In this document: positions 6,826 through 43,290 of the stretch, one piece after another
Position numbering within the stretch: position 1 is the stretch's first letter
Layout: every line of letters starts with the position of its first letter
Assembly: GCA_963675665.1 (NCBI GenBank)
Contig: OY776510.1
Span: 5,056,001-5,120,000 of the forward strand
Direction of reading: 5' to 3'
DNA: 64,000 bases
DNA from: Spirochaetia bacterium
GTDB lineage: Bacteria > Spirochaetota > Spirochaetia > UBA9216
The notes under the pieces: generated by a model
The model's input: the letters and a program-made list of their open reading frames with translations, nothing else
Databases searched by the model: none
Told to the model about the DNA's origin: nothing
Position numbers and translations under genes: made by a program

Positions 6826-7047
6826 TCAGAAACGGCCTATACATATAAGAAAAACTCCCAAAATGAGTAAAAGCATGTTCCTGCCCAGAAATATCAAATT
6901 CGCGGATTTTCTTCCAAAACGATTTCTTAACGAAACCAGACCGAAAAACATGTCCGGGAAAAACACCTGCAGCAGAGTCAGCGCCGAAAAGAAAACTATG
7001 ACGATAATTCCGAAGATCTTTAAAATCACTCTCAGTACTTCATTCAT
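6826..7047 (-). CDS. Small hypothetical membrane protein (2 TM)
   Basis: Two hydrophobic stretches; starts 4 nt after the upstream stop, AGGAG RBS. Confidence 0.55.
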   Translation of the reverse strand: MNEVLRVILKIFGIIVIVFFSALTLLQVFFPDMFFGLVSLRNRFGRKSANLIFLGRNMLLLILGVFLICIGRF

Positions 7048-7050
7048 TTT

Positions 7051-8439
7051 TTACTCCTGGCCTGTTTCCGCTGTCCTGAATGTTAATGACCGCAGACCTG
7101 AATTTATTTTCATCCATTCGCTTGTTGCGGTTATTTTAACTTTTGTGAATTTGTTATTTTCAGATAAATTTAAATGAGATTTCAGCCACGTCTTAACACT
7201 ATCCGGGTAACTGTTAAAATTTTCCAAAAGATTACCGGGCACCTCAACTGCCCCTGTATATTTCCTTGGGTTCTTATCAAGCCCTGGAGATCTTTTTTTC
7301 AATCTTACGGTTCCGACTGAATGAATTTTCAGATTGATGTTTTTAGCCTGTCCAAATGATATTACAAAATCAGCAGGCGTACAGTAACAGTGAAACTCAT
7401 TAATCCTTATTGAAAAATCACGGTACTTTTTCAGGTAATTATAGTACTCACCACGACCGGAATCATCCATGGAGCTGTCATACGGCCTGTTTTCCAGAAA
7501 CTTTCCGGCAAGAGGCAGGTTTGTTATATGAAATTTCCATTCAGCATCGGAAATGTGTTTTTCATAAAATCCGGTTTCACCATTTCTGTTCAGGCCTTCA
7601 ACCCTGAGCACACGATCTGTGCAATATGTTCCGACTTTAAAAATAGTAATACAATCTGTAATCTGCGCATCGCCTCCTGATGTATCAATTTTAGGCTGCA
7701 TTTTCCAGTCTTCAGCGGGAAGCTGCCATTTGGGATTATCCTTTCCCCTCTGGTCCTCGTAGCTGTAGTCGATTGGATAATAAATATTGTGGTACCCTGA
7801 TATATCAAAATCATACAGACGGGTAAACATATCGCCAAATTTATTCATGATAAAATGAGTAGAACCGCTGCTGCTCATTGCTGCCGCGACAAACCTGCCC
7901 CTGTAAGGCAACCCAATCTCATAGCTGTAATCCGCCGGCAGCCACGGGTCATTGAAAATCAGGTGCCTGCCTGCATTGTCAAGAATGATCAGATGCGCAC
8001 AGCTTATTTCGTTTTTCGGCGGCTGTCCCTGATGATTGCCGGCTGGATCGGTATACATAATGTCTTCCGGCGTTGATACAACAGATATATCCCAGGACAG
8101 GATATCTTCCCTGATATTAAATCCGAAGCCCTGGGCAAAAGGGAATCCCCAGCGGTCCGTCCAGAAAAAATCCTCAACAGGCCCTCGAGCATCATCCATC
8201 CTGTAAAGTCTGCGGTTACTATCTATTGCAATCATTTGCCTGCCGTCGATGGCAATTTCAGATACACTTCCATCAAGATCTTTCGGCAGCGTCATTTTTT
8301 CCCAGGGACCGTCGCCGCCGTCGAGGTCCTGATTTGGTTTGATATAGATACTTCCGTCCAGAATTGCTGTGTAGTAACGGGAATTGAATGTATATTTACC
8401 GGTCCTGAAATAGAACCTTTCCGGAAGATCAATCTTCAT
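7051..8439 (-). CDS. Hypothetical protein of unknown function
   Basis: 462-aa ORF in operon context; rich in Trp, Asp and Pro; no recognised motif. Confidence 0.75.
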   Translation of the reverse strand: MKIDLPERFYFRTGKYTFNSRYYTAILDGSIYIKPNQDLDGGDGPWEKMTLPKDLDGSVSEIAIDGRQMIAIDSNRRLYRMDDARGPVEDFFWTDRWGFPFAQGFGFNIREDILSWDISVVSTPEDIMYTDPAGNHQGQPPKNEISCAHLIILDNAGRHLIFNDPWLPADYSYEIGLPYRGRFVAAAMSSSGSTHFIMNKFGDMFTRLYDFDISGYHNIYYPIDYSYEDQRGKDNPKWQLPAEDWKMQPKIDTSGGDAQITDCITIFKVGTYCTDRVLRVEGLNRNGETGFYEKHISDAEWKFHITNLPLAGKFLENRPYDSSMDDSGRGEYYNYLKKYRDFSIRINEFHCYCTPADFVISFGQAKNINLKIHSVGTVRLKKRSPGLDKNPRKYTGAVEVPGNLLENFNSYPDSVKTWLKSHLNLSENNKFTKVKITATSEWMKINSGLRSLTFRTAETGQE

Positions 8440-8463
8440 GAATGCCCCTGAATTCCTTTAATT

Positions 8464-9828
8464 TTAATTATTTATATCCTCTTTGATCTTCTCATAGTTC
8501 TCCGGATTGATTGGAAAAAATGAGACCACAACAGTTCCGATTATCAACAGAGCAGAAGGCAGAAGCGTAAACAATGCGGTAATTCCGAATTTTACATCAG
8601 CAGGCTGTTCAACATTGGCTACGTAACCTATCAACTCCAGAATATAACCGACTGAATATCCGGCTATTGCAGAACCGAGCTTGAAAACAAAATAAAAGAC
8701 TCCGTAGATCGGACCCTCATAATTATGTCCTGATTTCAGCTTTGAATACTCCACCGTATCCGGCAGCATTGACCAGGGTGAAAGCCAGTTTGTTGAAAGA
8801 CCTACGCCTCCGAAAATCAGAAGAGGCAGAATCATCGGAATTGAGGAAGCGCTAATTTTTATTTCCCTGTCGCCGACAAAAAAGATCACAATTAGGGCAA
8901 TTACAACCATACTCATTCCGATAATATACGGTTTTTTCTTTCCCAATCTCGAAGACAGTTTTACAAACAGGGGAATACTTATTGCCGCAGATACAAACAG
9001 GCTCAGCAGCGCCGCTGATGTAAGTTCTTCCCTGAGCAGGCAATACTTGAAGTAATAGGCAATCAGAATGGCCATTATTCCCGTTGCGGTCATTACAAGG
9101 AGCAGGGCTGTCGTCAGAATAATAAACGGTTTGTTTATCGAAAGGGCCCTGAGTATCTCCTTTATACCGCTTTTCCTTCTCTTTTCGACTGTATTTCGCT
9201 CTTTTACCGTCAGAAACGTTACAATGGTTACAATACCGATTGCCAACCCGTATACTATCCCGGTTCTTCTGAACCCCTGGACCTGGCTTCCGTTTCCCAG
9301 AACGGATACCAGCAAAAGCGTGACGCCTGCAGCGGTCAGGGTCCCAATAATCCCCAAAAAGACCCTGTAACCCGTTATAACCGAACGTTCATGATAGTCA
9401 TCCGTCATTACCGGCGTTAAAGCCAGGTACGGGACATTGACAACCGTAACCGCCGTGCTGAAAAATGTAAAAGTCAGTAATGCATATATTATTCTGCCCA
9501 GCTCATTCAGATCCGGCGACATGAAAAGAAGAAATACCGACAGCCCCAGGGGAGCGGCCCCGAATAACAGATAAGGCCTTTTGCCGCCCCATCTGCTTGA
9601 TGTATTGCCGACAATATAACCCATAACTGGATCGGTTAAAGCGTCCCAGATTTTTGAAAAAAGAAATATGCCGCCTGCAACGGCAGGTGAAAGCCGGAAA
9701 ACATCCGTATAAAAAAACAGAAGATAAAAAGCCACAACCTGGAAAGCCAGATTAGCCCCGAAATCTCCGACTGCGTACCCGAGCCTGGTTTTCATACCAA
9801 GTTTATATGTACCGACTGCATTATTCAT
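8464..9828 (-). CDS. GPH-family (MelB-like) MFS symporter
   Basis: GDFGAN, WDALTDP, RWGGKRPYLLFG, PDTVEY motifs. Confidence 0.9.
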   Translation of the reverse strand: MNNAVGTYKLGMKTRLGYAVGDFGANLAFQVVAFYLLFFYTDVFRLSPAVAGGIFLFSKIWDALTDPVMGYIVGNTSSRWGGKRPYLLFGAAPLGLSVFLLFMSPDLNELGRIIYALLTFTFFSTAVTVVNVPYLALTPVMTDDYHERSVITGYRVFLGIIGTLTAAGVTLLLVSVLGNGSQVQGFRRTGIVYGLAIGIVTIVTFLTVKERNTVEKRRKSGIKEILRALSINKPFIILTTALLLVMTATGIMAILIAYYFKYCLLREELTSAALLSLFVSAAISIPLFVKLSSRLGKKKPYIIGMSMVVIALIVIFFVGDREIKISASSIPMILPLLIFGGVGLSTNWLSPWSMLPDTVEYSKLKSGHNYEGPIYGVFYFVFKLGSAIAGYSVGYILELIGYVANVEQPADVKFGITALFTLLPSALLIIGTVVVSFFPINPENYEKIKEDINN

Positions 9829-9844
9829 TTTTTATTCTCCATGT

Positions 9845-11215
9845 TTAAACCCCGCGCAACTTTCGTTTTTCTATTATTCCGATGATCCTGTTATGCATCC
9901 TTGTATCCAAAGGATAAAAAACCAGGGTAATAACTCCCAAAAGCAACAATATTGCAGGAATCAATGTAAACAGATATTTAATCCCTTCGAGAGTTTTTTC
10001 AGTCTGTGCCATATTCGGATTATACCCCGTTCCCGACAGGACCTTTCCGACTATAAATCCCGCAATTGCAACGCAAAGTTTTTGAACGAAATAAAATATT
10101 CCGTATAATATTCCTTCCTTTCTATTTCCAGTCACAAATTCCGAATATTCAACGGTATCGGCAACCATCGCCCAGGGAGAGATCCAGTTTGTCGACAACC
10201 CTATGCCGGCAAATACAAATAATATTATGGTCAAAGCAGCGCTCCGCTCTCCAACCAGCATTATCATTACCAGGCTTACTATTACTATGGACATACCGAG
10301 GCAATATGCCGTGCGCTTGCTTGTTCTTTTGGAAATGTATATCCAGAGAACCGAAGCGCCTGCCGCCGATACGAACAGGCAGAGGAAAGCAATTGATATC
10401 AGGTTTTCAGCTCCCAGATTGTACTTAAAGAAATAATTTATCACGACGGCAAGAATGTTCATTCCGGTCATATTTAAAAGGACTCCGGCGCAAAGAAGGA
10501 GAAACGGTTTATTGCGTACAATTATCCGGATTGAATCCCTTAAACTGTTTTTGTCGCCGGCGTTATAATCAATCTTTTCCTTTACAGCAAAAAAACACAG
10601 GAGCGTTACTCCGGCGGCAATCAGACCGTATACCATGCCGAGCATCCTGAAGCCAAGTTGCTGGCTGCCGGCTCCAAGCAGGTTAACCAGCGGAAGGGTC
10701 ACAGCAGCAGCCGTCAATGTCCCGAGGATACTGAAAATCGCCCGGAACCCCATCACCGAAGCCCTTTCATCGCTGCTTGAAGTCAATGACGGAGTAATTG
10801 CCTGGTAGGGAACATTTACCACTGTTATTGCAGTACTGAAAAAGATAAAAGTTGCCAGTCCGTACAGGAATTTATACTGTTGCTCTACAGGCGGGGCAGC
10901 CCATAACAAAGCTATGCTGAGCATGAACGGAAAGGAGCCGAACAGCAGGTAGGGTCTGAATTTCCCCCACCTGGTTCTGGTTCTGTCGGCAATCATCCCC
11001 ATCAGCGGGTCGGATACTGCATCCCAAATCTTTGCGTATAGAAATATCGTTCCGGCCAGGGCTGGAGCAAGTCCGAATACATCTGTAAAATAAAACATCA
11101 AAAAAAGGCTGGTAGACTGGAACGCCAGGTTCGCTCCGAAATCCGCCAGGGAATAATTCAGCTTGATCGAAAAACCTACCTTCTGATCACTTTCCATTTC
11201 CAATATCTTACTCAT
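9845..11215 (-). CDS. GPH-family (MelB-like) MFS symporter
   Basis: WDAVSDPLMG, DRTRTRWGKFRPYLLFG, ADTVEY motifs. Confidence 0.9.
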   Translation of the reverse strand: MSKILEMESDQKVGFSIKLNYSLADFGANLAFQSTSLFLMFYFTDVFGLAPALAGTIFLYAKIWDAVSDPLMGMIADRTRTRWGKFRPYLLFGSFPFMLSIALLWAAPPVEQQYKFLYGLATFIFFSTAITVVNVPYQAITPSLTSSSDERASVMGFRAIFSILGTLTAAAVTLPLVNLLGAGSQQLGFRMLGMVYGLIAAGVTLLCFFAVKEKIDYNAGDKNSLRDSIRIIVRNKPFLLLCAGVLLNMTGMNILAVVINYFFKYNLGAENLISIAFLCLFVSAAGASVLWIYISKRTSKRTAYCLGMSIVIVSLVMIMLVGERSAALTIILFVFAGIGLSTNWISPWAMVADTVEYSEFVTGNRKEGILYGIFYFVQKLCVAIAGFIVGKVLSGTGYNPNMAQTEKTLEGIKYLFTLIPAILLLLGVITLVFYPLDTRMHNRIIGIIEKRKLRGV

Positions 11216-11224: not shown

Positions 11225-12553
11225 CTAAATTCCGAGAAAAACATTCTGATTCTTCAGATTAGACTGCAATTCAGCAATATCCAATTCTCTGACAAGCAGA
11301 TCCTTTGCCGAACAGAGAGCGGCGGCAGTACCTGCCGCCTGTCCCGTCAGCATACATACAGGCTGAATTGCCCAGGCGGCCATTGCTTCATACTGTCCCG
11401 AAATGGAGCTTCCGGGTACAATTACATTTTTAATCTTTTCAGGCAGAAGACAACGAAACGGAATAGTGTACCAGGTGTTTATCAGATGTTTGAAGATATT
11501 GCTTCCGCTTTCAGGGTCCCAGATTTCCACACGGTAGGTACCTGTTGCTATCACATCATCAAACTTTTTCCCCGATAAAATATCGTTCTGGGTGATATGG
11601 TAATCACCGTGAATTCTGCGGGTACCTATTGCTCCCAGAGAAGCGCCAGTATTGATTAATTTTGCATCCCTGAATTCCGGAAAAGTTTTTTTCATGTATT
11701 CGACAATGTCCCAGATCTGCTGTCTCTGAACTTTTTCACCCTCTGCAGAACTTTCCGGCTCCAGCGGATTGATATTGAAGACCCTTGTTCCGAATATCTG
11801 TACTACGCCTCTGCTGAATACATGCATGCAGAGGCCCTGCAACGGAATATCAATAATCCCTCTGGAGCGGTCTTTCTCATAGATACCGGATATTTTTTCG
11901 ATATCAATTTTATCGGTGTCTACGCCTGCAATTCTCCACGTTGTTGAACTCGGCATTATGAAGTTTTTCTCAGGATGTCCCAAATCGGCACCGTAACCGG
12001 CCCTGAACACCAGATCGGCACTGCCTGTTGCATCAATGAAAATCTTTCCTTTTACCTTCCGTCTGCCGCTCAGGGTTTCTATTACTATTGATTCAACCAG
12101 ATTATCCGCCATATTTACACCGGTTAAAAGAGAGTTATTCCAAAACTCAACTCCTGTTTCATCCATGAGATCAAAAAAAACTTTTTTTAACGCCTCCGGA
12201 TCATAGATATACCATTTAGCCGACGCAACCTTGTCATCTTCCGTCGGATCGGGAACAAAGGTATCGACTCCGTCCATTTTTATTTCCCTGAGTTCTATTG
12301 CATCGAGAGTCCTCAGCCTGTCAACTATTTCCTGCGGAAACCCGCTGTAGGATTGTTCCATTTCCCCGATTTCGATAGCGGTAACTATAGGCCACATTGA
12401 AACCGGCACAACGGTAGACATGCCACCCGGAAAAGAAAATCTGTCAATCAGCAGGACTTTTGCCCCGTTGCGACTTGAGGATATGGCGGCGCTCATCCCG
12501 GACGGGCCGGAGCCGGCTATCACTACATCAAAATTTAAATTTTCTTCATCCAT
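11225..12553 (-). CDS. FAD-dependent oxidoreductase (PF12831-like)
   Basis: GSGPSG dinucleotide motif, FIDATGSADL, RRIHGDY, YTIPFRCLLP, CMLTGQAAGTAAAL. Confidence 0.85.
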   Translation of the reverse strand: MDEENLNFDVVIAGSGPSGMSAAISSSRNGAKVLLIDRFSFPGGMSTVVPVSMWPIVTAIEIGEMEQSYSGFPQEIVDRLRTLDAIELREIKMDGVDTFVPDPTEDDKVASAKWYIYDPEALKKVFFDLMDETGVEFWNNSLLTGVNMADNLVESIVIETLSGRRKVKGKIFIDATGSADLVFRAGYGADLGHPEKNFIMPSSTTWRIAGVDTDKIDIEKISGIYEKDRSRGIIDIPLQGLCMHVFSRGVVQIFGTRVFNINPLEPESSAEGEKVQRQQIWDIVEYMKKTFPEFRDAKLINTGASLGAIGTRRIHGDYHITQNDILSGKKFDDVIATGTYRVEIWDPESGSNIFKHLINTWYTIPFRCLLPEKIKNVIVPGSSISGQYEAMAAWAIQPVCMLTGQAAGTAAALCSAKDLLVRELDIAELQSNLKNQNVFLGI

Positions 12554-12578: not shown

Positions 12579-14135
12579 TTATTGTGAAACATCGACACCT
12601 GTCGCAATCATTTCCGAGATTTTTTTCGCAGCCAGAATCTGGGTCCATACGCCGGGTCCGCATTCGCTTTGACTGCCTATAAACCAGAGGTTCCTGAAGG
12701 GAGTTTTATGCGGTATTCCGGCGGTTATAATATCCGGCCTGGCCCCTCCGAAAGAGTGGTGTGAAACCTGATGAACCATCTTCCCGTAATCTTCAGGGGT
12801 TATGACAACCTTTTCAAGAATCGACTGCTGAAGCCCGGGTATTATCCTTTCAGCATGGTTCAGCAGTTTTTCTTCGAGCCGGGCTCTATGACTTTCCCAT
12901 CCGCCGTCAATTCTGTACGGGGCAATGGTATATACGGTCACTGCGTATTTCCCTTCCGGGGCCATGTCGGGCGAGTGAAAAGACGGGATATAAATCAGAA
13001 AACCGTCGTCTCCCTGCTGCGGGACCCCCTGCCTTGTTCGCTTCACTCCGGCTTCCACATCATAAGTATTGTAATAGTACGCCAGAGGCATCGGCTGATA
13101 TTCTGCAGGGTTAAAATCGATTCCCAGGTGGATCATGAAAACCGATTCCATAAGAGGCAGGTTCTCAACCTTGTCTATCCATGATTTATCAAGATACTCT
13201 CTGCCGATCATATTAAAAAAACAGTTTTCAGCCGGGCCGCTGACCGCGACAATATCCGACTCGTGGAAAACACCGTCGGAAGTTTCCACTCCACAGGCGC
13301 AATTATCCTGAATGTGGATTTTCCGGACCGGCGCTGAGGTATGAACACGGCCTCCGTTTTTTACCAGCCGCTCAATAATATTATTGATCAGCACCCCGTT
13401 TCCTCCTTCCACATAACGGTAGGTTATATGTCCGGGACCGAAACAAAAAACCTTTCTCTGCCTGATTTTCCTGTTATATGCATTTTCCTGGTTGGAAAAT
13501 GCCAGCGCAAGCGCCGGGTACTCATCGGGAAGAACCGTCATATCCGCAAGGATCATCATGAAATAGGCTTTTAATTTATCGTTTTTAAAAAACAGATCAA
13601 CAATCTCGCAGCTGTTCATCCGGCTGTACTTTCTAACTGCAAGATATTTAACAGACATTCCGGCTTTGAATAACAGTTTAATGAATCCGTTTTTAAACGG
13701 AATATTCTTCTCAAGTGTTACAAGATCATTAACAGTATCCATCATTCCCAGGAATTTTCTTATACTTTTCCGTTCTTCAGGGAAAATGGAGGACAACCGT
13801 TTCTTTCTCCAGTTTCTATTAAAATCATCGCCCGGCTGTATTGAAAAATCTTTAAAGAAAAGACTGCGGTCTCCCCTGACAAGCTTAAGGTCAAAGTCGG
13901 GAAATACTTCCTTTAACGCTTTTCCTGCCGGTTCCGCCGGAGCAATACCCTCAAGCATCATCGGGCCCAGATCCCATTTAAAACCGTTTGACGACAGTGT
14001 TGCGGTTACTCCGCCGGGCCGGGAATGCTGCTCAAAGACCTCTGTCTGATAACCGTATTTCTGAAGACAGGCGGCAAGACTTAATCCGGCTATGCCGCTT
14101 CCGATAATTATAGCTTTCTTCCCGTTTGTATTCAT
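12579..14135 (-). CDS. Phytoene desaturase / retinol saturase-like FAD oxidoreductase
   Basis: IIGSGIAGL..EQHSRPGG..GFKWDLGP; SVFMIHLG; TPFRNLWFIG. Confidence 0.8.
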   Translation of the reverse strand: MNTNGKKAIIIGSGIAGLSLAACLQKYGYQTEVFEQHSRPGGVTATLSSNGFKWDLGPMMLEGIAPAEPAGKALKEVFPDFDLKLVRGDRSLFFKDFSIQPGDDFNRNWRKKRLSSIFPEERKSIRKFLGMMDTVNDLVTLEKNIPFKNGFIKLLFKAGMSVKYLAVRKYSRMNSCEIVDLFFKNDKLKAYFMMILADMTVLPDEYPALALAFSNQENAYNRKIRQRKVFCFGPGHITYRYVEGGNGVLINNIIERLVKNGGRVHTSAPVRKIHIQDNCACGVETSDGVFHESDIVAVSGPAENCFFNMIGREYLDKSWIDKVENLPLMESVFMIHLGIDFNPAEYQPMPLAYYYNTYDVEAGVKRTRQGVPQQGDDGFLIYIPSFHSPDMAPEGKYAVTVYTIAPYRIDGGWESHRARLEEKLLNHAERIIPGLQQSILEKVVITPEDYGKMVHQVSHHSFGGARPDIITAGIPHKTPFRNLWFIGSQSECGPGVWTQILAAKKISEMIATGVDVSQ

Positions 14136-15463
14136 ATTGATTTACATACTGCATAATGGTAATCAGAAATCACTTCCGCTATTCTTGCCCTGATTAGTTC
14201 AGAAGGGTCTTTTTTTAATAACTGATTTCTAACATCCCAATATTGTCTTTCAAAAAACTGCTTTAAAAGACCATCCGGTATTTCTTCGGATTCCATATTG
14301 ACAAGAAGCCTGTCAAGGCTCTCTTTTACCTCGGGATCATTCCAGTAATATCTTATTCGATCCGAATAACTGTATTTTTTTGACAGTTCAACTTCATACC
14401 TGCTTCCGCGGTAATAATCTTCCCAGTAACTTCTATTCCTGTTCTCCGCCTTGTTAAGAACCTCTTTAATTTCCGACAGTTTTATATTTACAAAAGACCC
14501 GAACATCTCCTGCTCCATGTAGCCCAAAAGGAAAACAGCCTCGCGCATTGCATATGACAAAGCAGGACCCACTTTTAAAATTGAGAAACCGTCGGCTACC
14601 ATGGATCTTAATTTCTCCGCCGATTGATAATCAGTTGAATGCGCTTCATAAACCAGATTGTAGTTTTTAATAAATTCTATAAGCTTTTCATTTTTTTCAT
14701 GTTCATATGGAAATACGATACTGTCGCCGAATTCAACTCCCGGCTGAACTACAACGGCAATCACCCTTTCCCATGCGTTATGAAGTTTTTCTTTCGCAAA
14801 AGCGGCTTCCGCTTCTTTTATTGTGTATTCAAGATCACTGACCGACGTAACCTCCGGGGCAGCGACATGCCCTTCAACCTCACCTCCGGGAACCGGCACC
14901 TCCGATCCAATTACAAAAACAGGGGGCTCAAGGGCCCTGTTCAGTTTATATTCTTCTTCGAAAGCCTTTTCGGCAACCCTGCATAATTGCGCTGTTCTTT
15001 CGGCTATAAGCCGTATATTTATTCCGCCCCCGGGTTCACGTTCGTCTTCCCCGAGAGGATGGCTGGCATCAAGATGTATCTTGCTGAATCCGGCCCGGAC
15101 ATAGCTGTCTACAAGGTCACAGGCTTTTTCCATTGCTTTTTCAGCCGGCTCTTTCCTCCATGGGTATGGTCCGAGATGGTCTCCCCCCAGAATCAGGGAT
15201 TCGGAACTGATCAGCCCTTTACTGTATATTGATTCTATATAATTTCTGAAATCTGCCGGCTTCATACCGGTGTAGCCGCCTTGCTGATTAACCTGATTGG
15301 AGGTTGATTCAATCAGCACCGGAAGTCCGGCTTCAGCGCCCTGTTCAATTGCAGCTTCGAGAACAAACCGGTTGGACGAACATATTGAAGCAATCCCGGA
15401 GTGCCTTCCGTTCCTGTTGTCGTCTATAATATTTCTGAATAAATCATATGTTGATTTCTTCAT
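14132..15463 (-). CDS. gatZ: GatZ/KbaZ family protein (tagatose-6-phosphate 4-epimerase-like)
   Basis: SICS, ESTSNQVNQQGGYTGM, GGDHLGP, GSEVPVPGG, VVQPGVEF, EAHSTDYQ, SDRIRYYW. Confidence 0.9.
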   Translation of the reverse strand: MKKSTYDLFRNIIDDNRNGRHSGIASICSSNRFVLEAAIEQGAEAGLPVLIESTSNQVNQQGGYTGMKPADFRNYIESIYSKGLISSESLILGGDHLGPYPWRKEPAEKAMEKACDLVDSYVRAGFSKIHLDASHPLGEDEREPGGGINIRLIAERTAQLCRVAEKAFEEEYKLNRALEPPVFVIGSEVPVPGGEVEGHVAAPEVTSVSDLEYTIKEAEAAFAKEKLHNAWERVIAVVVQPGVEFGDSIVFPYEHEKNEKLIEFIKNYNLVYEAHSTDYQSAEKLRSMVADGFSILKVGPALSYAMREAVFLLGYMEQEMFGSFVNIKLSEIKEVLNKAENRNRSYWEDYYRGSRYEVELSKKYSYSDRIRYYWNDPEVKESLDRLLVNMESEEIPDGLLKQFFERQYWDVRNQLLKKDPSELIRARIAEVISDYHYAVCKSI

Positions 15464-16422: not shown

Positions 16423-16425
16423 CAC

Positions 16426-17962: not shown

Positions 17963-17997
17963 TTTAATCTCCATAAAAAAAGGTAAACTGCTTATTT

Positions 17998-20558: not shown

Positions 20559-20578
20559 AACTTCTCCAAGTAAAATAT

Positions 20579-32717: not shown

Positions 32718-32770
32718 TTTTATCATTCCTCCTTTTATCAAATATACCGAACTGTAAAAACCACATGATT

Positions 32771-35341: not shown

Positions 35342-35373
35342 ATCCTTCCCCTTGTACCGATTCAAATTAAAAT

Positions 35374-36198
35374 TCAGCCCTTAATCGCTCCCATTGTCAA
35401 ACCCCGAACTATATATTTCTGCGTAAGAGAAATAAACAGCACCGCAGGAATAATTGCTATTACCGACGAAGAACTTAATCTTGCCCAATCAAGTTGATAA
35501 TATCCTAAAGAATTATATATTTCCACAGGTAAAGTGCGGGTCACCCTTCCTGTATTATAGAGCGCAAAAATGAATTCGTTCCATACCGAAATAAAGCCCA
35601 AAGTAGCCGATGCAAATATTCCGGGTCTTATTGCGGGTATAATTATCAACAGGAAGGATTTCCACCGGCTGCATCCGTCGACCATCGCCGCTTCTTCCAG
35701 TTCTACAGGAACATCCTGAAAAAAGCTTCGCATCATCCAGACTATTAATGGTGTAGCAAGAACAGCGTACATCAGTATCATGGATATATACGAATCCTGT
35801 AAACCAATCTTTCTCCACAGCAGAAAATACGGTATTACAAAAACAATCGGCGGAACCAATCTGAGATATAAAACAGAATAGGAAATCATCCGGTTTCCTT
35901 TAAAACGGAACCTTGCAAATGCGTATCCTGCAAAAACTCCTATTATAGTGGACAGCAACGTGGATAACCCTGCTATAACGACGCTGTTAACAAGAGCTTT
36001 CAGAAACCTTGAGTCCAGAAGCAAATGAAGATAATTATCGAATGTGGGTTTGAATTTCCAAACCGGAGGAGAAACGACTGACAGGTTAGTCGGTTTAATT
36101 GAGGTCAGTAACAACAATATAAACGGAATAAGTTCTATTGCAATAATCAGTATTAAAACGGCTTTCTTTCCGGTAATAATCAGTTTTCTTTTGTTCAC
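35374..36198 (-). CDS. Carbohydrate ABC permease (MalG type)
   Basis: LEEAAMVDGC, WNEFIFA, QKYIVRGLTMGAIKG. Confidence 0.92.
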   Translation of the reverse strand: MNKRKLIITGKKAVLILIIAIELIPFILLLLTSIKPTNLSVVSPPVWKFKPTFDNYLHLLLDSRFLKALVNSVVIAGLSTLLSTIIGVFAGYAFARFRFKGNRMISYSVLYLRLVPPIVFVIPYFLLWRKIGLQDSYISMILMYAVLATPLIVWMMRSFFQDVPVELEEAAMVDGCSRWKSFLLIIIPAIRPGIFASATLGFISVWNEFIFALYNTGRVTRTLPVEIYNSLGYYQLDWARLSSSSVIAIIPAVLFISLTQKYIVRGLTMGAIKG

Positions 36199-36211
36199 TT
36201 TTCCTCAACTC

Positions 36212-37105
36212 CTAGTTATCAAGTTTTTTCATAAATAGAGATACAAGAAAGATTATAAGGATTAAAAACAAAAACGTTGCAGCGCAGGCATACCCCATAT
36301 GATAATAAACAAAAGCCTGTGTGGAAGCGAACAGAGAGATATTTTCCGTAACATGACCGGGACCGCCGTTGGTTACTACATAAATCTCGTCAAACATTTT
36401 CAAGGCATCCATAAATCTGAGAATAAACCCGATAACGGCAACAGGTTTGATAATTGGTATAATTATTGAAAAAACCTTTTGCCTCCAGTTTACACCGTCT
36501 ATTGCTGAAGCATCAAACACGGAATTATCTATGCTGGATATTCCCGCATAAAAGATGATAACAATAAACGGTGTTCTAAGTATAACTTCCATTACCAGTA
36601 ATGCAACAGGGGCGGCTACTGCGCCTTTAAAAATCATAAATCCTTCCAACCCGAACAATTGAAGAAACCAGTTCAGATAACCGAATGTCTGGTCATAAAT
36701 CAGGGTTTTAAACGCATAGGAAATTGCTACAGGCGGTACAACAAATGAAACAAGCAGCAAAGTTCTTATTACAGAAGAGAATCCATGTGAAATATCCTTA
36801 TCGCTCAATAAAAACGCAACAATAAATCCTACTATTATCTCAAGCGATGTTGCGACAAACGCAAACAGAAACGTAAAAATCAACGCATGTATAAATCTGC
36901 TGTCGTTCGTAAGCAGGTTAATATAATTCTGAAGACCGATATATTTTGCAGGGGGATCTATCAATTCATATTCCTGCAATGAAATAATAAAAGAATAGAT
37001 AACCGGGACAATTCCAAGCAGAATAATCAGGGCAACCGCCGGGAGAATTAATAAATAAGGCAATCTGTAATCATTCTTGCTTTTAGCAACTAATGTAAGC
37101 TCCAT
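36212..37105 (-). CDS. Carbohydrate ABC permease (MalF type)
   Basis: DASAIDG, FDEIYVVTNGGPG. Confidence 0.9.
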   Translation of the reverse strand: MELTLVAKSKNDYRLPYLLILPAVALIILLGIVPVIYSFIISLQEYELIDPPAKYIGLQNYINLLTNDSRFIHALIFTFLFAFVATSLEIIVGFIVAFLLSDKDISHGFSSVIRTLLLVSFVVPPVAISYAFKTLIYDQTFGYLNWFLQLFGLEGFMIFKGAVAAPVALLVMEVILRTPFIVIIFYAGISSIDNSVFDASAIDGVNWRQKVFSIIIPIIKPVAVIGFILRFMDALKMFDEIYVVTNGGPGHVTENISLFASTQAFVYYHMGYACAATFLFLILIIFLVSLFMKKLDN

Positions 37106-37121
37106 ATTTCCCTCTTAATAG

Positions 37122-37147
37122 AAAAGCAGGGAGGCTTACGCCTCCCT
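37122..37147 (-). terminator. Stem-loop after the SBP gene
   Basis: agggaggc-ttac-gcctccct, with T runs nearby on both strands. Confidence 0.6.
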
Positions 37148-37153
37148 TTTCAC

Positions 37154-38518
37154 TTATTTTGCAGGCGTAAAGCCGATTCCCATTAAGGATTTATCAGCAT
37201 CAGCAGCCGCTTCATCTACAGTTTTGATACCGGCAATGATATTACTCATTTCGGTAGAAACTATATCAGCTGTTTCTCCATATTTTGCATCTACAAGTAT
37301 ATGATCGGGTTCAATACCCATAATCATCATCTTTTGTTGTGCATCAATAAATTCAGCGCTCGGCATTGCTTTAACATAGTCTGCAGTCTTGTAAACGGAA
37401 CTTCTTGCCGGGCAGCCGTACTGAGGCGCAATTTTATTCATCAGAGTCGGGGATGTAGCCCACTGTATGAACAGCCATGCAGCGCCTTTGTTCCTTGAAT
37501 CTTCATTCATACCCCAGCCCCAAACCCAGAGCGGGTCCTTTCCGCCTTCAGCCATCGGAGGCATAGCATATCCGACCTTGCCGGCAACCTTGGATTCTGC
37601 TTCATCTTCAAGAAAGGCATAGGATGCATTTCCGCCTGTTGTCATGGCGATCATTTCGGTTTTAAATGCCTGGGCAATTTCCGGCCAGGACCAGTTTCCT
37701 GACCCCGGAGGCGCATAATCAAGAACCAGGGAAGTATAATAATCAAGAACATTCTTGGCAGCCGGAGTACTTACATTGCTTATCATATTCTCAAAATCAA
37801 AGAAAGGAACTCCAAACCTGTAACCCGTACAAAAAAGGTTCCATCCGCTTTCTCCGCCGCCGGGCATCTGGCGTTCGATCCATGCGTATTCCTTGATTTT
37901 ACCGTCCAGCCTGGCTTTATCCAGCTTCGCTGCGGTTTCCCTCAGCTCTACAAAATTGGTAGGAACTGATAACCCGAGTTTGTCAAAGATGTCTTTACGG
38001 TACCAGAGTAGAAAATATTCCGCCGTATATGGTATAAAAACCAGTCCGGAATCTATTTCCCCGGAAGCAAGAACATCGGCAGGATAGTCGTCGATATTGT
38101 ACCATTCGGCATCGGTAAGCTTCGAATCATTAATAAATTTTGATAGATCGGCAAGATATCCGCCCTGTACAAATTCACCTTTGTTTGAGAAACCTACATT
38201 GCTTACATCATATTCACCTGTTCCGGAGTTGAAATCCACAACCTGCTTCTTCTTTCTGTCTGTATCTGAAAGAAGTTCATAATTAACCTTGATTCCAGTG
38301 AGAGTCTCAAACTCTTTAAGCTGCTCAACATAAATTTCCGACACAGCCATGGAAGTCATAAGCACGCTGATGCTTTCTCCTTCAAACTGACGCCAGTCTA
38401 TACTTCCCCAATCGCCTTCAACAGCCGGGGCTTCGACACTTTCCTGTGCTCCGCCTGCTGTCGCAACCATCGGCAATAACAGCAGCAGAAAACACGCCAA
38501 AATCAGACCTTTTTTCAT
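37154..38518 (-). CDS. Carbohydrate ABC (CUT1) substrate-binding protein (paralog of 27660-29051)
   Basis: Signal ending AGGAQES; shares GDWGxIDW, APPGSxNWSWP and GGxDPLWxWGW with the other SBP. Confidence 0.88.
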   Translation of the reverse strand: MKKGLILACFLLLLLPMVATAGGAQESVEAPAVEGDWGSIDWRQFEGESISVLMTSMAVSEIYVEQLKEFETLTGIKVNYELLSDTDRKKKQVVDFNSGTGEYDVSNVGFSNKGEFVQGGYLADLSKFINDSKLTDAEWYNIDDYPADVLASGEIDSGLVFIPYTAEYFLLWYRKDIFDKLGLSVPTNFVELRETAAKLDKARLDGKIKEYAWIERQMPGGGESGWNLFCTGYRFGVPFFDFENMISNVSTPAAKNVLDYYTSLVLDYAPPGSGNWSWPEIAQAFKTEMIAMTTGGNASYAFLEDEAESKVAGKVGYAMPPMAEGGKDPLWVWGWGMNEDSRNKGAAWLFIQWATSPTLMNKIAPQYGCPARSSVYKTADYVKAMPSAEFIDAQQKMMIMGIEPDHILVDAKYGETADIVSTEMSNIIAGIKTVDEAAADADKSLMGIGFTPAK

Positions 38519-38668: not shown

Positions 38669-38732
38669 AGACACGTGTAGCTACTCGTGTAGCTACACGT
38701 GTATTATAAAACCATCACTCATAATCTGTCAA
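38669..38732 (-). promoter_or_regulatory. Sigma70 promoter TTGACA-N18-TATAAT with triple tandem operator
   Basis: -35 at 38732-38727, -10 at 38708-38703; agacacgtgtag|ctactcgtgtag|ctacacgtgtat at 38669-38704. Confidence 0.85.
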
Positions 38733-38807: not shown

Positions 38808-40187
38808 TTATCGATTCCTCTCGCGCAACTTTCTCTCAATATCCGCATGCACTTTCGCATCTATCGGGAATTTTTGAACAACGACTATACCGGCTGCAAT
38901 AAAACCAAAGGGTATCCAGGTCTGCAACAGCCGGATTGCATTTACAGCTTCAGGGATCTGGTTCATATTGGCAATGTAACCGGCTTTTGAGAGAACAGTC
39001 CCTACCAGAAATCCCGCAAATGCCGATCCAAGCTTAAAAACAAAGTAGAAAATGCCATAAAGCAGGCCTTCATTTCTTATCCCGGTATCAAGTTCCGAAT
39101 ATTCGACCGTGTCGGGAAGGATAGACCATGGTGAAAGCCAGTTGGTAGAGAGGCCCATCCCGCAGATAAAAAGAAACAGAAATATTGCCGGAATTTCGGT
39201 ACCAAACAGGCTCAGTTCCTTTTCACCGAAAAAATAGATAAGGGCAAGCCCAGCGGCCACAATTCCCATTCCGATATTATATGTGAATTTCTTACTTGTC
39301 TTTTTTGAAATTCTTACGTACATCGGAATGAAGGCTGCAGCGGTAACAAAAACAAACAAGAATCCGACAGATGTCATAGCCTCATTTACAATAACATATT
39401 TAAAATAATAACTGATAATGACTGCAAGTATACTCATTGCAACAATATGCAGGGCTGTTCCCGCAGTTATAATAATAAACGGTTTGTTCCTGAGAACAGC
39501 CAGCAACTTCGGTTTGAAGGCAGTTTTCTCTCTGTTTACAGAAACGGTCTTCTCTTTGACGGCAATAAAACTGACCAGTGTTACAACAGTTACAATGACA
39601 CCGTAAATCAACCCTATATATCTGAATGCCAGGATCTGGTTGCCGGAGACAAGACTGCCCAGAGATAAAGTAGCGCCCGCTGCAAGCAGTGTTCCAAGAA
39701 TCCCGAATATAACCCGGTAGCCTGTTATAACAGCCCGTTCATGTGAATCTTTCGTCATTGCGGGAGTCAGCGCCAGGTATGGAACGTTAACCACTGTAAT
39801 TGCCGTACAGAATAATATAAATGTTACGATTCCGTAGATGAACTTTGTTTCGCCCGGAATATCAGGGCCGAAAAATAACAGAAAAATGGTAATTCCAAGC
39901 GGAACCGCCCCGAAAAGCAGATAAGGCCGTTTCTGTCCCCACCTTGTATCGGTCCTGTCAACCAGGAAACCCATAACCGGGTCAGATACGGCATCCCAGA
40001 TTTTCGCACAAAGAATTATCACTCCTGCAAGAGCAGGCAGTATTCCGAACACATCCGTAAAAAAGAACAGAAGATAGAAACTGGTCACCTGAAAAGCAAG
40101 GTTCGCCCCGAAATCGCCTATTGCATAACCGAATTTCGTCTTCAGATTTACTTTATCGGTTCCTGTTGGTTTTGATATGGAATTCAT
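38808..40187 (-). CDS. GPH-family (MelB-like) MFS symporter
   Basis: GDFGANLAFQ, WDAVSDPVMG, RWGQKRPYLLFG, GLSTNWLSPW, PDTVEY. Confidence 0.9.
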   Translation of the reverse strand: MNSISKPTGTDKVNLKTKFGYAIGDFGANLAFQVTSFYLLFFFTDVFGILPALAGVIILCAKIWDAVSDPVMGFLVDRTDTRWGQKRPYLLFGAVPLGITIFLLFFGPDIPGETKFIYGIVTFILFCTAITVVNVPYLALTPAMTKDSHERAVITGYRVIFGILGTLLAAGATLSLGSLVSGNQILAFRYIGLIYGVIVTVVTLVSFIAVKEKTVSVNREKTAFKPKLLAVLRNKPFIIITAGTALHIVAMSILAVIISYYFKYVIVNEAMTSVGFLFVFVTAAAFIPMYVRISKKTSKKFTYNIGMGIVAAGLALIYFFGEKELSLFGTEIPAIFLFLFICGMGLSTNWLSPWSILPDTVEYSELDTGIRNEGLLYGIFYFVFKLGSAFAGFLVGTVLSKAGYIANMNQIPEAVNAIRLLQTWIPFGFIAAGIVVVQKFPIDAKVHADIERKLRERNR

Positions 40188-40820: not shown

Positions 40821-40852
40821 TACTCTACTCCCTTTTTTGTTATCTTATCCCG

Positions 40853-40909
40853 CTACACGTGTAGGTTACACGTGTTACCCATAATAACACCGGTGTTTTT
40901 TTTTGTCAA
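40853..40909 (-). promoter_or_regulatory. Sigma70 promoter TTGACA-N17-TATTAT with tandem operator
   Basis: -35 at 40909-40904, -10 at 40886-40881; ctacacgtgtag-g-ttacacgtgtta at 40853-40877. Confidence 0.8.
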
Positions 40910-41016: not shown

Positions 41017-42246
41017 CTATTTTATTATTTCAATTCCCAAAGGATATTTGGAAAGGACTTCACAATCATTTTTCCTTATAACTATGGGATTCTCATATCT
41101 GAAGCCGATATCCTCATCAGAACAGGCATACTGCATTGCGCAAATAAGCATTTCACCTTCCCTGTATGAATGATCAGGATCAGTCCAGTATGGAATCGGG
41201 CCGTCGTCTCTGCCTATGCGCCATTCATCACCCAGCATTCCGATGCCGTGTTCAAAACCCGGCAGCATATACTCGCCGAAACCTTTGTCTTCCGCTATTC
41301 CCAGCAGTTCCTCCGAAAGGATATCGGGAGTTACTCCGGCCTTATACCTTTTAAGCGTTTCCTGTACTATCAGAATGAAATTCCCGGCGTGCCACATCTG
41401 CCGGTCGGTGGCTTTTCCGATAAAGTAGTTATGTGAATGGTCACCAAGACCCAGCCTGAATGTCGCATGCAGATCCACCATCAGCGGGTCACCTTCAGAC
41501 AGCTCTTTTCTTGACGGCGGGGTACATGCACATCCGGGAAGCCCGGTCCGGTACCCGCAGGCAATTTCGTTACCGCCGGTAAACGACCATTCCCATTCGC
41601 TGCCCTGCTTCCGCATTGCAAGCGCCGCAATACCCGCAATTTCCGTTTCGGTAACGCCCTTCCATCCGCCGCCGGAAAGCGCGGAAAAAACCGCTTCATG
41701 TCCTGCGTCAACCATACGTGAGGCTTCCCTGAAACGATTGACTGTTCCCTCGTCTTTAATGACGGCAATACGGTCAACAATATACTGGGCGTTTACCAGC
41801 TCGGAGCCTTCAAGCGCATCCCTGAACCCCTGGTATTCGCGGCGGGTAAGATTTCCTTCGGGCGTGTAATTGCTCATACCGTCTTCAAAGCCAACCCGGC
41901 CTTTTCCTCCGGGCAGCGCATCTTTGATATAAGCAGAAACAAGAGAAATCTGATCCATTCCGCCCATCGAAACATAACCCAACACATGGTCTTCATCCAG
42001 CCAGGATTCATCAGCAATCCGGCCCGCATCGATCAGAAATGTAAAAACCCACGGAAGGCCTTCGGCCGGAATCACAACAAAGCTGCGCCAGGGGCAGAAA
42101 GCGTCTGTAGTCCATGATAATGTTCGGAGTCTCGACCCCAGATATACATCAATTCTTTCTTCAGCCATGGCTGCCTGTATTTTTCTGATTCGTTCGGGAA
42201 AATCAACATAGTACGGGCTGTTTTTATCTGTTATAGAAGGCATCAC
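41017..42246 (-). CDS. M24 (Xaa-Pro peptidase/creatinase) fold hydrolase
   Basis: Creatinase-N-like region plus pita-bread motifs VD..GD, HGIG, RYEN. Confidence 0.8.
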   Translation of the reverse strand: MMPSITDKNSPYYVDFPERIRKIQAAMAEERIDVYLGSRLRTLSWTTDAFCPWRSFVVIPAEGLPWVFTFLIDAGRIADESWLDEDHVLGYVSMGGMDQISLVSAYIKDALPGGKGRVGFEDGMSNYTPEGNLTRREYQGFRDALEGSELVNAQYIVDRIAVIKDEGTVNRFREASRMVDAGHEAVFSALSGGGWKGVTETEIAGIAALAMRKQGSEWEWSFTGGNEIACGYRTGLPGCACTPPSRKELSEGDPLMVDLHATFRLGLGDHSHNYFIGKATDRQMWHAGNFILIVQETLKRYKAGVTPDILSEELLGIAEDKGFGEYMLPGFEHGIGMLGDEWRIGRDDGPIPYWTDPDHSYREGEMLICAMQYACSDEDIGFRYENPIVIRKNDCEVLSKYPLGIEIIK

Positions 42247-42659
42247 TCGCCTCCTTCAAATAAAGTCGGAACCTGGGAAATAACATTGTTCATCCGATCA
42301 CTTATGGTGACCAGTTTTAAAGCCTTGATCATATTTCCTTTCAGTTTCATTTTTCCGCTCATCAGGGCTTTTTGCGAACGCAGCTCACCTCTTGATACTT
42401 TCGCAAACATTTCATAATCAGCTGTAATAACAAATTCAGCATCAGGCCAGTTATCTCCTTCTCCCACAGAGACTTCGGCAAACAACCCTTCCTCCATTCT
42501 GGTATAGAAATAGTGTTTCTTGCCATCAGGACATTTTTCATATACATTTACCATTGAGGTAGATGTATGTTTGTTTGTTTCTGCACTCAGTGTTGATGTA
42601 AGTCTTTCCCGGACCGCATCGCACCACTGTTTGCTCAGATACAACAGTTTTTCAGACAT
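42243..42659 (-). CDS. SCP2 sterol-carrier-like lipid-binding protein
   Basis: AEFVITADY..GEL...KALMSGKMKLKGNM..AL; ATG 42659 after GAGGA. Confidence 0.85.
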   Translation of the reverse strand: MSEKLLYLSKQWCDAVRERLTSTLSAETNKHTSTSMVNVYEKCPDGKKHYFYTRMEEGLFAEVSVGEGDNWPDAEFVITADYEMFAKVSRGELRSQKALMSGKMKLKGNMIKALKLVTISDRMNNVISQVPTLFEGGE

Positions 42660-42705
42660 ACTGAAATCCTCCTCTTTGGCCGGCAGCTGCAACTGTCGGC
42701 TTTAT

Positions 42706-43290
42706 TTAAACAAGCACTCCCTTAAGAATTAAATCGATTGCTTCGCTGTAGTAATCCTCAAACAAATGCTTATTCGGCAGAATATAGGTTTTAACAATAA
42801 ACATTACGTATATTGAATAAAACAGGTGACTGATATGGTCCGTATCAAAATCATTCCTGAACACTCCCCGTGCTTTTCCCTCTTCAAGAATTGAAGCTAT
42901 CATTTGAATTGATCTTCCGTGTATGTCGGAAAAAAGACCGCTGTTAATGGGATCTATCGGAAAAAGGGTTTTATCTTTTATAAAAATCTCTCTTAAAACT
43001 GAATCCTCAGCCAGATATCTGTATGACAGTTCGCACATGATACGAAATTTCCTGACAGGATCTGTTTCGGAGACAAGTTCCGAAAAAACCCGGCCCTGCC
43101 ATTTCTTCAATCCCCAGGCAACCGCGTCCAAATACAGCTGCTTTTTGGATTTAATAAAGAAGTATAGATTGCCTTTTGTCATTCCCAGTCTCCGGGCGAT
43201 GGATGAAATGTTTGCCCTGCTGTACCCGAAACCGGAAAATTCTTCCAGAGCTGCCTGATATATATCTTCAATCCGTTTTTGTTTATCCAT
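42706..43290 (-). CDS. TetR/AcrR-family regulator
   Basis: AALEEFS.FGY...IARRLGMTKGNLYFFIKSK. Confidence 0.92.
   Translation of the reverse strand: MDKQKRIEDIYQAALEEFSGFGYSRANISSIARRLGMTKGNLYFFIKSKKQLYLDAVAWGLKKWQGRVFSELVSETDPVRKFRIMCELSYRYLAEDSVLREIFIKDKTLFPIDPINSGLFSDIHGRSIQMIASILEEGKARGVFRNDFDTDHISHLFYSIYVMFIVKTYILPNKHLFEDYYSEAIDLILKGVLV

Follow-up and report, generated by a model that had tools for sequence, protein, structure and literature searches.

In Agrobacterium tumefaciens and Sinorhizobium meliloti, polyols are degraded by a polyol dehydrogenase, a tagatose kinase and a tagatose-6-phosphate 4-epimerase, and the last two lead from tagatose to fructose-6-phosphate (PMC9720028). 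In anaerobes, the oxidation of kinase-made polyol phosphates by flavoprotein/Fe-S enzymes is an established theme with a thermodynamic rationale for NAD-independence, and many members of the FngABC family are thought to oxidize polyol phosphates other than glycerol 3-phosphate (G3P; PMC13689815). Alkyldihydroxyacetonephosphate synthase (ADPS) is an enzyme of ether-lipid synthesis. In the Dictyostelium protein Y508 serves as the base, R352, Y508 and R447 are important according to mutagenesis, and a domain found only in ADPS gates a channel sized for a C16 chain (PMC3509576). Here, we analyze a 64,000-nucleotide stretch (the window) of a marine spirochaete (Spirochaetia bacterium, GCA_963675665.1, contig OY776510.1), which covers bases 5,056,001-5,120,000 of a genome consisting of a single 5.15-Mb contig. 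An island at 7051-43290 of the window combines polyol and ketose enzymes, sugar importers and an ADPS-like flavoprotein. With a probability of roughly one half, we read it as a polyol/ketose regulon that contains an oxidoreductase step resembling GlpABC but built on the fold of the vanillyl-alcohol oxidase (VAO) family.

The island is a true regulon, most likely under one repressor. Its genes lie on the minus strand, all except two. A repeat search of the intergenic regions first yielded an 18-bp palindrome, and the pattern CACGWGTAGCTACWCGTG with up to two mismatches has four matches in the window against none expected. These four are also the only matches in the 5.15-Mb genome. Two of them overlap at promoter P2 and one each is found at P3 and P4, and P1 carries a variant operator with the half-sites of the palindrome (Table 1). 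A scan with the promoter consensus shows no overall enrichment; its four best minus-strand matches (12/12, 12/12, 11/12, and 11/12) sit immediately 5' of the operators. An earlier, sequence-only reading of the window had described the genes as operator-linked and as one co-regulated system, and the palindrome at four strong promoters bears this out. Genes of the longest operon, P4, are spaced by -4 to 25 bp, save for a gap of 185 bp after the gene of the Gfo/Idh/MocA dehydrogenase (Gfo).

The core of the island is conserved across phyla. Scans with the flavoprotein retrieved orthologs of 64-68% identity in a metagenome-assembled genome (MAG) labeled 'delta-proteobacterial', a Spirochaetaceae MAG, an Anaerolineae MAG and metagenome contigs, and the other cassette proteins are 34-70% identical in the related loci. 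The core consists of FGGY kinase, Gfo, ADPS-like flavoprotein, GlpC-like partner, Zn-dependent polyol dehydrogenase (ZnADH) and a LacI regulator. According to tblastn searches with all window proteins, the shared order is [CrtI] [SBP_B-permease-permease] FGGY-Gfo-ADPS-like-partner-ZnADH-LacI_2 [TagK-GatZ] [GPH], where SBP stands for substrate-binding protein and TagK for the tagatose-kinase-like protein. Two full cassettes, L086 and L138, were added by an alignment-based scan with the CrtI-like proteins. Six independent loci that each come with 8 kb of context or more (L001, L002, L003, L037, L086, and L138) form what we call the first tier. FGGY kinase, Gfo, partner and LacI_2 are each present in all six, ZnADH and GPH symporters in five each, and the SBP_B-type importer in three (62-64% identity in L002 and L003). 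Gfo is 65-70% identical in five first-tier loci and in L036, and 45% in L002. The sequence-only reading proposed the joint recurrence of ADPS-like and desaturase-like genes as a check, and it is indeed found: CrtI-like genes accompany the flavoprotein in 5/6 first-tier loci with enough flank, and in three of the loci (L001, L086, and L138) the palindrome lies directly 5' of the CrtI-like gene. Topical literature searches found no published description of such a cassette.

LacI_2 is most likely the repressor that binds the palindrome, because no other regulator is conserved together with the cassette (LacI_2 shows 49-55% identity across the first tier) and the operator accompanies it in four of the six loci (L001, L002, L086, and L138). 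The background is one match in 2.07 Mb of other, unrelated loci. The second regulator, LacI_1, has no counterpart in the related loci. Other proteins particular to this window, with none found in related loci, are SBP_A, the PHP hydrolase, the D-psicose 3-epimerase-like protein, the PF12831 flavoprotein, the ureidoglycolate-lyase-like (UGL-like) protein, GPH1 and the propeller protein.

GatZ does not belong to the core, in contrast to its place in the sequence-only reading. TagK and GatZ occur together only in L003 and L037. A protein search found no GatZ in five cassette genomes (the four first-tier genomes without a nearby GatZ, plus L132), and a PF08013 search of the same five gave a single match (1/5), which is weak and lies outside the cassette. 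GatZ and the tagatose kinase are an accessory module.

The core was not found in 40 genus-to-class relatives of the host, where the best homolog has no more than 34% identity, and of 400 genomes of the host phylum six have homologs of 41-46%. Because close relatives have only such distant homologs while the cassette recurs in distant phyla, we take the island, regulator and operator included, to have been acquired horizontally. The 41-46% clade provides a second tier of six loci (L245-L250) from five spirochaete genomes, all of which have the triad of FGGY kinase, ADPS-like flavoprotein and partner. FGGY kinase and GlpC-like partner thus adjoin the flavoprotein in 12/12 related loci with flank (six first-tier and six second-tier). 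Second-tier neighbors include IolB, PfkB and class II aldolase; Dak1 and AP_endonuc_2; altronate-dehydratase-like and RuBisCO-like genes; and a DeoR regulator, a fumarate-reductase-like flavoprotein, a creatininase-family protein and EtfAB. CrtI-like or GPH genes are absent from the second-tier loci (0/6), and no lipid-catabolic genes were seen in four first-tier loci (L001-L003 and L037) or in the six second-tier loci. L250 is noteworthy in its own right: here RuBisCO-like and altronate-dehydratase-like proteins, a UPF0261/PEP-hydrolase-like pair, Dak1 and three AP_endonuc_2 proteins accompany the triad, which makes for a further sugar pathway without assigned function.

Sequence, fold and the catalytic Arg and Tyr all mark the flavoprotein as ADPS-like, which is how the sequence-only reading had named it. 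In a search against all solved structures it matches Dictyostelium ADPS (2uuu) with 190 bits and mammalian ADPS with 155 bits, followed by D-lactate dehydrogenase (133 bits) and glycolate oxidase (125 bits). Its structural model (pLDDT 88.5) superposes best on mammalian ADPS (4bca/4bby, TM score 0.87), with D-lactate dehydrogenase at 0.84. In the HMMER alignment, R265 and Y397 correspond to the ADPS Arg (Dictyostelium R352) and Tyr (Y508), the numbering offset having been checked against the published positions (PMC3509576). H437 and H438 correspond to the second and third His of the ADPS loop HHH, and E436 takes the place of the first, so that the loop reads EHH. R265, Y397 and E436-H437-H438 are invariant in 117/117 homologs of 44-100% identity (3 of 120 listed sequences were dropped, being shorter than 441 residues). 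In contrast, the R447 equivalent is not conserved: the island protein has K339, while relatives have N, L, Y or H at this position. Ahead of the FAD domain, the island protein has 55 residues compared to 137 in Dictyostelium and 205 in mammalian ADPS (the alignment starts at residue 56, 138 and 206, respectively), hence about 80-150 N-terminal residues fewer, and the ADPS chains are 55-85 residues longer than the part aligned to the model. Judged from these alignments, the flavoprotein shares the catalytic core of ADPS, but not its lipid-handling parts. The subfamily comprises 1236 proteins at E <= 1e-40; the automatic JGI name 'alkyldihydroxyacetonephosphate synthase' is a label and not a test.

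A GlpABC-like reading is suggested because kinase, flavoprotein and electron-transfer partner recur together. We infer the substrates and the directions of all reactions from family membership. Four sigma-70-type promoters with palindromic operator, repressed by LacI_2, would drive the four operons. Polyols and related compounds would enter by the polyol-type CUT1 ABC importer and the GPH symporters; the nearest solved relatives of SBP_B, at 105 and 93 bits, are an Agrobacterium 'sorbitol' SBP (4rya) and a sugar SBP related to it, and an ABC ATPase gene was not found within the island. The Zn-dependent and Gfo/Idh/MocA dehydrogenases might convert the substrates into 2-ketoses, which the xylulokinase-like FGGY or the tagatose-kinase-like PfkB protein might phosphorylate, and the products could flow into pentose phosphates or, via a GatZ-type epimerase, into fructose-6-phosphate. 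The ADPS-like flavoprotein and its partner would be an NAD-independent flavin oxidoreductase acting on the small phosphorylated product of the neighboring FGGY kinase. This logic resembles GlpK/GlpABC or EryA/EryB, except that the catalytic subunit has the VAO fold. Candidate substrates are polyols of algae (altritol, galactitol, mannitol, and mannitol glucosides), for which the kinship of the host with a Sargassum-associated spirochaete MAG is the sole hint: in TrpB, the host shares 87% identity with a MAG labeled Ca. Thalassospirochaeta sargassi and 74-77% with Oceanispirochaeta MAGs.

Several observations weigh against this interpretation. One concerns the partner, of which the sequence-only reading named the presence correctly but not the condition: the gene stands beside the flavoprotein, but most Fe-S ligand cysteines are missing. 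The window partner retains 7/23 cysteine positions of the L003 ortholog, which itself has 24% identity to E. coli GlpC (E 5e-13). The two ferredoxin motifs have kept three cysteines each (3/4 and 3/4), with Ser in place of the fourth Cys in motif 1 and Gly in place of the second in motif 2. Ser-Ser-Gly stands where orthologs have the two CCG motifs, no CCG-2 cysteine is left (0/5), and Pfam finds no PF02754 (CCG domain) match in this protein. The five nearest partner relatives (about 40% identity; P0122, P0124, P0125, P0127, and P0128) share the substitutions, and because they do, the loss is not the decay of a single gene. The contigs that encode two of these relatives match in length those of the two nearest flavoprotein relatives. 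Another pattern of Cys loss is found in second-tier loci L246-L249, and L245 lacks both CCG domains. Among 20 aligned partner sequences, six have both ferredoxin motifs and CCG-2 intact, and five of these also CCG-1; the full set is found in L002, L003, L250, P0123, and P0126, and L037 and P0129 keep nearly all cysteines. Since cysteines were lost in several lineages, electron transfer via the partner cannot be general. In the Cys-poor lineages either electrons leave by another route (in 3/4 Cys-poor second-tier loci EtfAB adjoins) or the flavin works without net redox. The depleted partner leaves room for non-redox chemistry of the ADPS type, with which the invariance of the Arg, the Tyr and two of the three loop His is also compatible. 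Moreover, a plain polyol pathway does not account for GPH symporters without a glycoside hydrolase. Apart from the reading it bears on, the repeated, lineage-specific loss of Fe-S cysteines in a full-length GlpC-like protein is a natural experiment on the role of the partner.

The CrtI-like flavoproteins A and B are paralogs (36% identity), and the genome encodes no other strong member of their subfamily. The sequence-only reading labeled them phytoene-desaturase-like; two CrtI-like proteins are present, but both score below the crtI_fam cutoff (TIGR02734, 109.6 and 126.8 versus 238.1 bits). A single-protein scan with CrtI_A found no locus, and the alignment-based scan instead gave 79 loci with subfamily members, of which 31 have a GPH symporter in the flank and five an ADPS-like gene. 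Spirochaete MAGs also have the GPH3-CrtI_B pair (identities of 72% and 57-58%, respectively). In L085 and L151, homologs of the 209-residue membrane protein (57% and 40% identity) are encoded next to CrtI-like and GPH proteins. Fourteen more distant CrtI neighborhoods contain GH2 and sulfatase, GH3, GH32, BNR sialidase-like, Gfo, PfkB/SIS, AP_endonuc_2 and URO-D-like genes. Acyl-CoA-type genes occur in 3/14 of them and carotenoid genes in none. Given their place in the regulon and the company of GPH symporters, the CrtI-like proteins probably have an imported, hydrophilic compound of the sugar type as substrate. A published pairing of CrtI with GPH in polyol use was not found in the literature. 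Two side observations concern these genes. In the Asgard archaea L097, L100, and L101 (Promethearchaeum syntrophicum MK-D1, Lokiarchaeum ossiferum, and a further MAG), a GPH3 homolog of 60-62% identity adjoins CrtI-like genes, suggesting inter-domain transfer of the pair. URO-D-like (methyltransferase-type) proteins adjoin CrtI-like or ADPS-like genes in three unrelated loci (L003 2697-3854, L139 8678-9874, and L250 3429-4481), and the window holds a URO-D/corrinoid pair at 56482-58183.

Among the alternatives, non-redox flavin-N5 chemistry of the ADPS type survives best, and we still consider it unlikely. Here, a 1-O-substituted polyol would be oxidized at C2 and phosphorylated, and the enzyme would then expel the C1 O-substituent and water would add. 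In a hydrophilic version the substituent would be a sugar or ring oxygen (glycosyl-polyol or anhydro-alditol), in a lipid version an alkyl or isoprenyl chain that the CrtI-like enzymes would process. ADPS is the top solved relative of the flavoprotein in score and superposition (190 versus 133 bits, TM 0.87 versus 0.84), and the equivalents of Dictyostelium R352 and Y508, which both matter by mutagenesis (PMC3509576), are invariant throughout the 117 homologs. The repeated loss of Fe-S ligands from a retained partner gene and the co-regulation of CrtI-like genes with the cassette in several genomes point in the same direction, as do the GPH symporters in an island without a glycoside hydrolase, the equal match of GPH3 to MFSD2A and MelB, and the SCP2 gene next door. 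However, the island enzyme lacks the N-terminal 80-150 residues relative to ADPS with its gating domain and C16 channel, its R447 equivalent varies and HHH has become EHH. Orthologs with intact Fe-S partners or electron-transfer flavoprotein (ETF) neighbors suggest net redox, the SBP is of the polyol type, the SCP2 operon has no operator, and the second-tier triads lack CrtI-like and GPH genes. Lipid-catabolic genes were seen neither in the second-tier loci nor in the first-tier loci L001-L003 and L037.

The lipid version fares poorly for these reasons: SBP_B is nearest to sorbitol-type binders, the N-terminal region of ADPS is missing, lipid-catabolic genes are unseen in the ten loci named above, and the second-tier triads stand in purely sugar contexts. 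In our opinion, the ADPS-like flavoprotein does not act on ether lipids. What remains of the sequence-only reading is the coupling of an ADPS-like enzyme to sugar-alcohol and CrtI-like genes, while GatZ is optional and the lipid or ether substrate finds no positive support. The C1-O cleavage of ADPS type that it proposed is chemically coherent. That the enzyme is an oxygen-independent C-O cleaver, running ADPS chemistry catabolically, seems distinctly improbable to us. In such a mechanism, a dehydrogenase would produce the 2-ketone and the FGGY kinase would phosphorylate it, whereupon the oxidized flavin would trap the C1 carbanion in the manner of ADPS, the C1 O-substituent would leave and water would add. 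Glycosyl-polyols might lose a sugar in this way, anhydro-alditols their ring oxygen and alkylglycerols an alkyl chain. If true, it would account for GPH 'glycoside' symporters without a glycosidase and for the cluster loss of the partner.

A similarly slim chance attaches to the view that flavoprotein and partner are an ordinary 2-hydroxyacid (D-lactate/glycolate) dehydrogenase of the GlcD/GlcF type riding in sugar operons, a possibility that the sequence-only reading had itself raised. The domains PF01565 and PF02913, a fold almost as close to D-lactate dehydrogenase as to ADPS, the GlcF/GlpC architecture of partner orthologs and the Glu in place of the first His of the ADPS loop would fit. 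The best NCBIfam model is indeed glcD, but its score of 211.5 bits (TIGR00387) is far below the cutoff of 567.9 (NF008408, 128 versus 897), and ADPS outscores D-lactate dehydrogenase. The ADPS-type Arg and Tyr are invariant, an FGGY kinase adjoins in every one of the 12 loci, and three second-tier loci hold a separate, better GlcD-like gene (FAD-oxidase_C 200-211 bits) beside ETF genes.

It is very doubtful that the CrtI-like flavoproteins, in analogy to GlpB or FngB, serve the ADPS-like/GlpC-like enzyme as electron-transfer subunits and have no substrate of their own. Co-occurrence and co-regulation with the cassette would agree with such a role, and GlpABC and FngABC have a second FAD/NAD-binding subunit (PMC13689815). 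Yet CrtI_A and the PF12831 protein show no similarity to E. coli GlpB (E 0.16 and 1.3), only 5/79 CrtI loci have an ADPS-like gene compared to 31/79 with GPH, and the second-tier triads have no CrtI-like gene. Finally, a chance juxtaposition of unrelated sugar operons without shared function, to which the many window-particular genes and the accessory GatZ and TagK might point, is scarcely credible and was already disfavored, given an operator unique to the island at four strong promoters and a core order conserved across phyla.

Turning to the remaining gene content, Pfam and NCBIfam profile searches of the window proteins recovered all genes named in the sequence-only reading, on the minus strand, and added a third flavoprotein (PF12831) absent from its list. 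Of the four GPH transporters it had counted, GPH1, GPH2, and GPH4 exceed the TIGR00792 cutoff of 231 bits, but GPH3 stays below it (169 bits); its matches to MFSD2A (65 bits, partial) and to MelB (58 bits over the full length) are equally distant. The matches of tagatose kinase, GatZ and psicose epimerase are good though below the equivalog cutoffs. The SCP2 gene of the adjacent operon is present (39.7 bits), but the TetR-SCP2-M24 operon has no operator copy, the palindrome pattern being without a match there. Open reading frames (ORFs) of 209, 462 and 184 residues are without a confident family, the last having only a sub-threshold OMP_b-brl match. No glycoside hydrolase family was detected by Pfam among the island proteins, no Rfam family matched in 6000-43600, and the base composition of the window shows no sharp island boundary. 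A separate ribose-type ABC importer on the plus strand (1471-6076; PBP4 SBP, ATPase, and two permeases) lies just upstream of the island without a palindrome copy, and a 73-residue hydrophobic ORF downstream of the propeller gene (6826-7047), without family match, may not be a gene.

The gap between Gfo and the ADPS-like gene is filled by a dispersed palindromic repeat with three hairpins, a fold energy of -70.6 kcal/mol (z -8.7) and no Rfam match. At least eight further copies (69-79% identity) are found around the genome, and the gap is absent from related cassettes. The repeat may be an insertion resembling miniature inverted-repeat transposable elements or repetitive extragenic palindromes (MITE/REP-like) that affects operon polarity. 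The propeller protein belongs to a family of 526 representative clusters without Pfam model, most relatives having N-terminal extensions. Its model (pLDDT 93) has a C-terminal beta domain and comes closest in fold to fucose lectins, tectonin and TolB (Z 11-12.6); Foldseek gave generic propellers only (TM < 0.3) and Protein Atlas a weak lead, 'secreted protein' (0.89).

Table 1. Features of the island and its flank, in window coordinates. ADH/DH, dehydrogenase; perm, permease.
Feature	Position	Strand	Evidence or content
Six-bladed beta-propeller protein, 462 aa	7051..8439	-	Last gene of operon P4; no Pfam/NCBIfam match
GPH2 and GPH1 symporters	8464..11215	-	TIGR00792 385 (GPH2) and 345 (GPH1) bits
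PF12831 FAD-dependent oxidoreductase	11225..12553	-	292 bits; no solved relative past FAD-binding N-terminus; particular to this window
CrtI-like flavoprotein A (CrtI_A)	12579..14135	-	Pfam/NCBIfam; orthologs of 45-49% identity beside cassette
GatZ/KbaZ-like protein	14132..15463	-	PF08013 529 bits, family level reached; TIGR02810 484.7 versus cutoff 568.8; epimerase or aldolase-chaperone role
Tagatose-kinase-like PfkB protein (TagK)	15460..16425	-	NF049991 275.9 bits versus cutoff 420
UGL-like protein	16426..16917	-	PF04115 48.6 bits; particular to this window
Zn-dependent polyol 2-dehydrogenase-like enzyme (ZnADH)	16943..17974	-	Solved relatives ketose reductase 1e3j (163 bits), xylitol DH 7y9p (153 bits)
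GlpC/GlcF-like partner, Cys-poor	17998..19110	-	NCBIfam match; alignment with orthologs
ADPS-like FAD flavoprotein	19113..20558	-	PF01565 and PF02913; VAO/PCMH two-domain fold
Dispersed palindromic repeat	20575..20745	-	In 185-bp gap between Gfo and ADPS-like gene
Gfo/Idh/MocA dehydrogenase (Gfo)	20744..21745	-	Pfam; weak solved relatives
Promoter P4 and operator	21765..21817	-	12/12; operator 21765-21782; operon: Gfo, ADPS-like, partner, ZnADH, UGL-like, TagK, GatZ, CrtI_A, PF12831, GPH2, GPH1, propeller protein
GPH3 symporter (23379-24812) and CrtI-like flavoprotein B (CrtI_B, 21836-23398)	21836..24812	-	Conserved two-gene pair
PHP-type CehA/McbA-family metallohydrolase	24856..25767	-	NF038032 95 bits versus cutoff 80
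Second CUT1 ABC importer: SBP_A and two perm	25780..29051	-	SBP_A nearest trehalose/maltose binding protein, 84 bits
Promoter P3 and operator	29175..29234	-	11/12; operator 29175-29192; operon: SBP_A, two perm, PHP hydrolase, GPH3, CrtI_B
LacI_1	30785..31816	-	Second LacI-type regulator; particular to this window
Ketose 3-epimerase-like TIM barrel	31857..32741	-	D-psicose 3-epimerase model 290 bits versus cutoff 300
FGGY kinase, xylulokinase-like	32771..34279	-	TIGR01312 361 bits versus cutoff 380
LacI_2	34337..35365	-	LacI-type regulator (Pfam)
CUT1-type ABC importer: SBP_B (37154-38518) and two perm	35374..38518	-	Pfam
Promoter P2 and two overlapping palindromes	38672..38732	-	12/12; palindromes 38672-38689 and 38684-38701; operon: SBP_B, two perm, LacI_2, FGGY, epimerase, LacI_1
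GPH4 symporter	38808..40187	-	TIGR00792 345 bits
Multi-pass membrane protein, 209 aa	40191..40820	-	No Pfam match; Atlas features place it in AF_1327 family
Promoter P1 and variant operator	40852..40909	-	TTGACA-17-TATTAT, 11/12; two ACACGTGTA half-sites; upstream of 209-aa membrane protein; operon: membrane protein, GPH4
TetR-SCP2-M24 operon	41017..43290	-	SCP2 ORF 42243-42692, between TetR and M24 genes

Bacterial and archaeal ADPS homologs are common, and no assigned reaction was found for them in the literature searched. The island offers a handle on these proteins in the form of a defined operator and putative repressor, a compact core shared by several phyla, an SBP of the polyol type and natural partner variants with or without Fe-S ligands. 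The ADPS homologs might turn out to be polyol-phosphate oxidoreductases, as a fourth such kind in anaerobes, or flavoenzymes of a new type that cleaves C-O bonds. Also at stake is the role of a large subfamily of CrtI-like proteins, which in Asgard archaea and in bacteria of sediments accompany GPH symporters.

Among known systems, the D-altritol/galactitol/D-tagatose pathway of A. tumefaciens C58 and S. meliloti resembles the island in having ZnADH, TagK-like and GatZ-like genes in a row together with a sugar regulator and an ABC importer. The island differs in its SBP, which is of the CUT1/SBP_bac_1 type, in the sub-cutoff scores of TagK (276 versus 420) and GatZ (485 versus 569), and in that the module is accessory. 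In the ygc cluster of E. coli K-12, YgcU is 29% identical to the island flavoprotein over 480 residues, that is over its full length, and has the same Arg, Tyr and His-His positions. YgcU is encoded beside the FGGY kinase YgcE, the MFS transporters YgcS/YqcE, the SDR protein YgcW, YgcNO and the ETF proteins YgcQR; no published function for YgcU was found among the literature matches listed. The E. coli partner is ETF/FixCX-like and not GlpC-like, the YgcU loop reads HHH compared to EHH here, and the cluster is without CrtI-like, Gfo, Zn-ADH and GPH genes.

GlpK/GlpABC and FngABC/Fnp share with the island the succession of kinase, flavoprotein and CCG-type Fe-S protein. Here, however, the catalytic subunit has the VAO/PCMH and not the GlpA/DAO fold, a GlpB homolog is missing and the partner is Cys-depleted. 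Eukaryotic ADPS/AGPS (EC 2.5.1.26) is the top solved relative of the flavoprotein by sequence and fold, and the Tyr, the Arg and two loop His are kept. The island enzyme is distinguished from it by the missing N-terminal extension and gating domain, the variable R447 position, the EHH loop, a dedicated partner gene and the sugar-kinase context.

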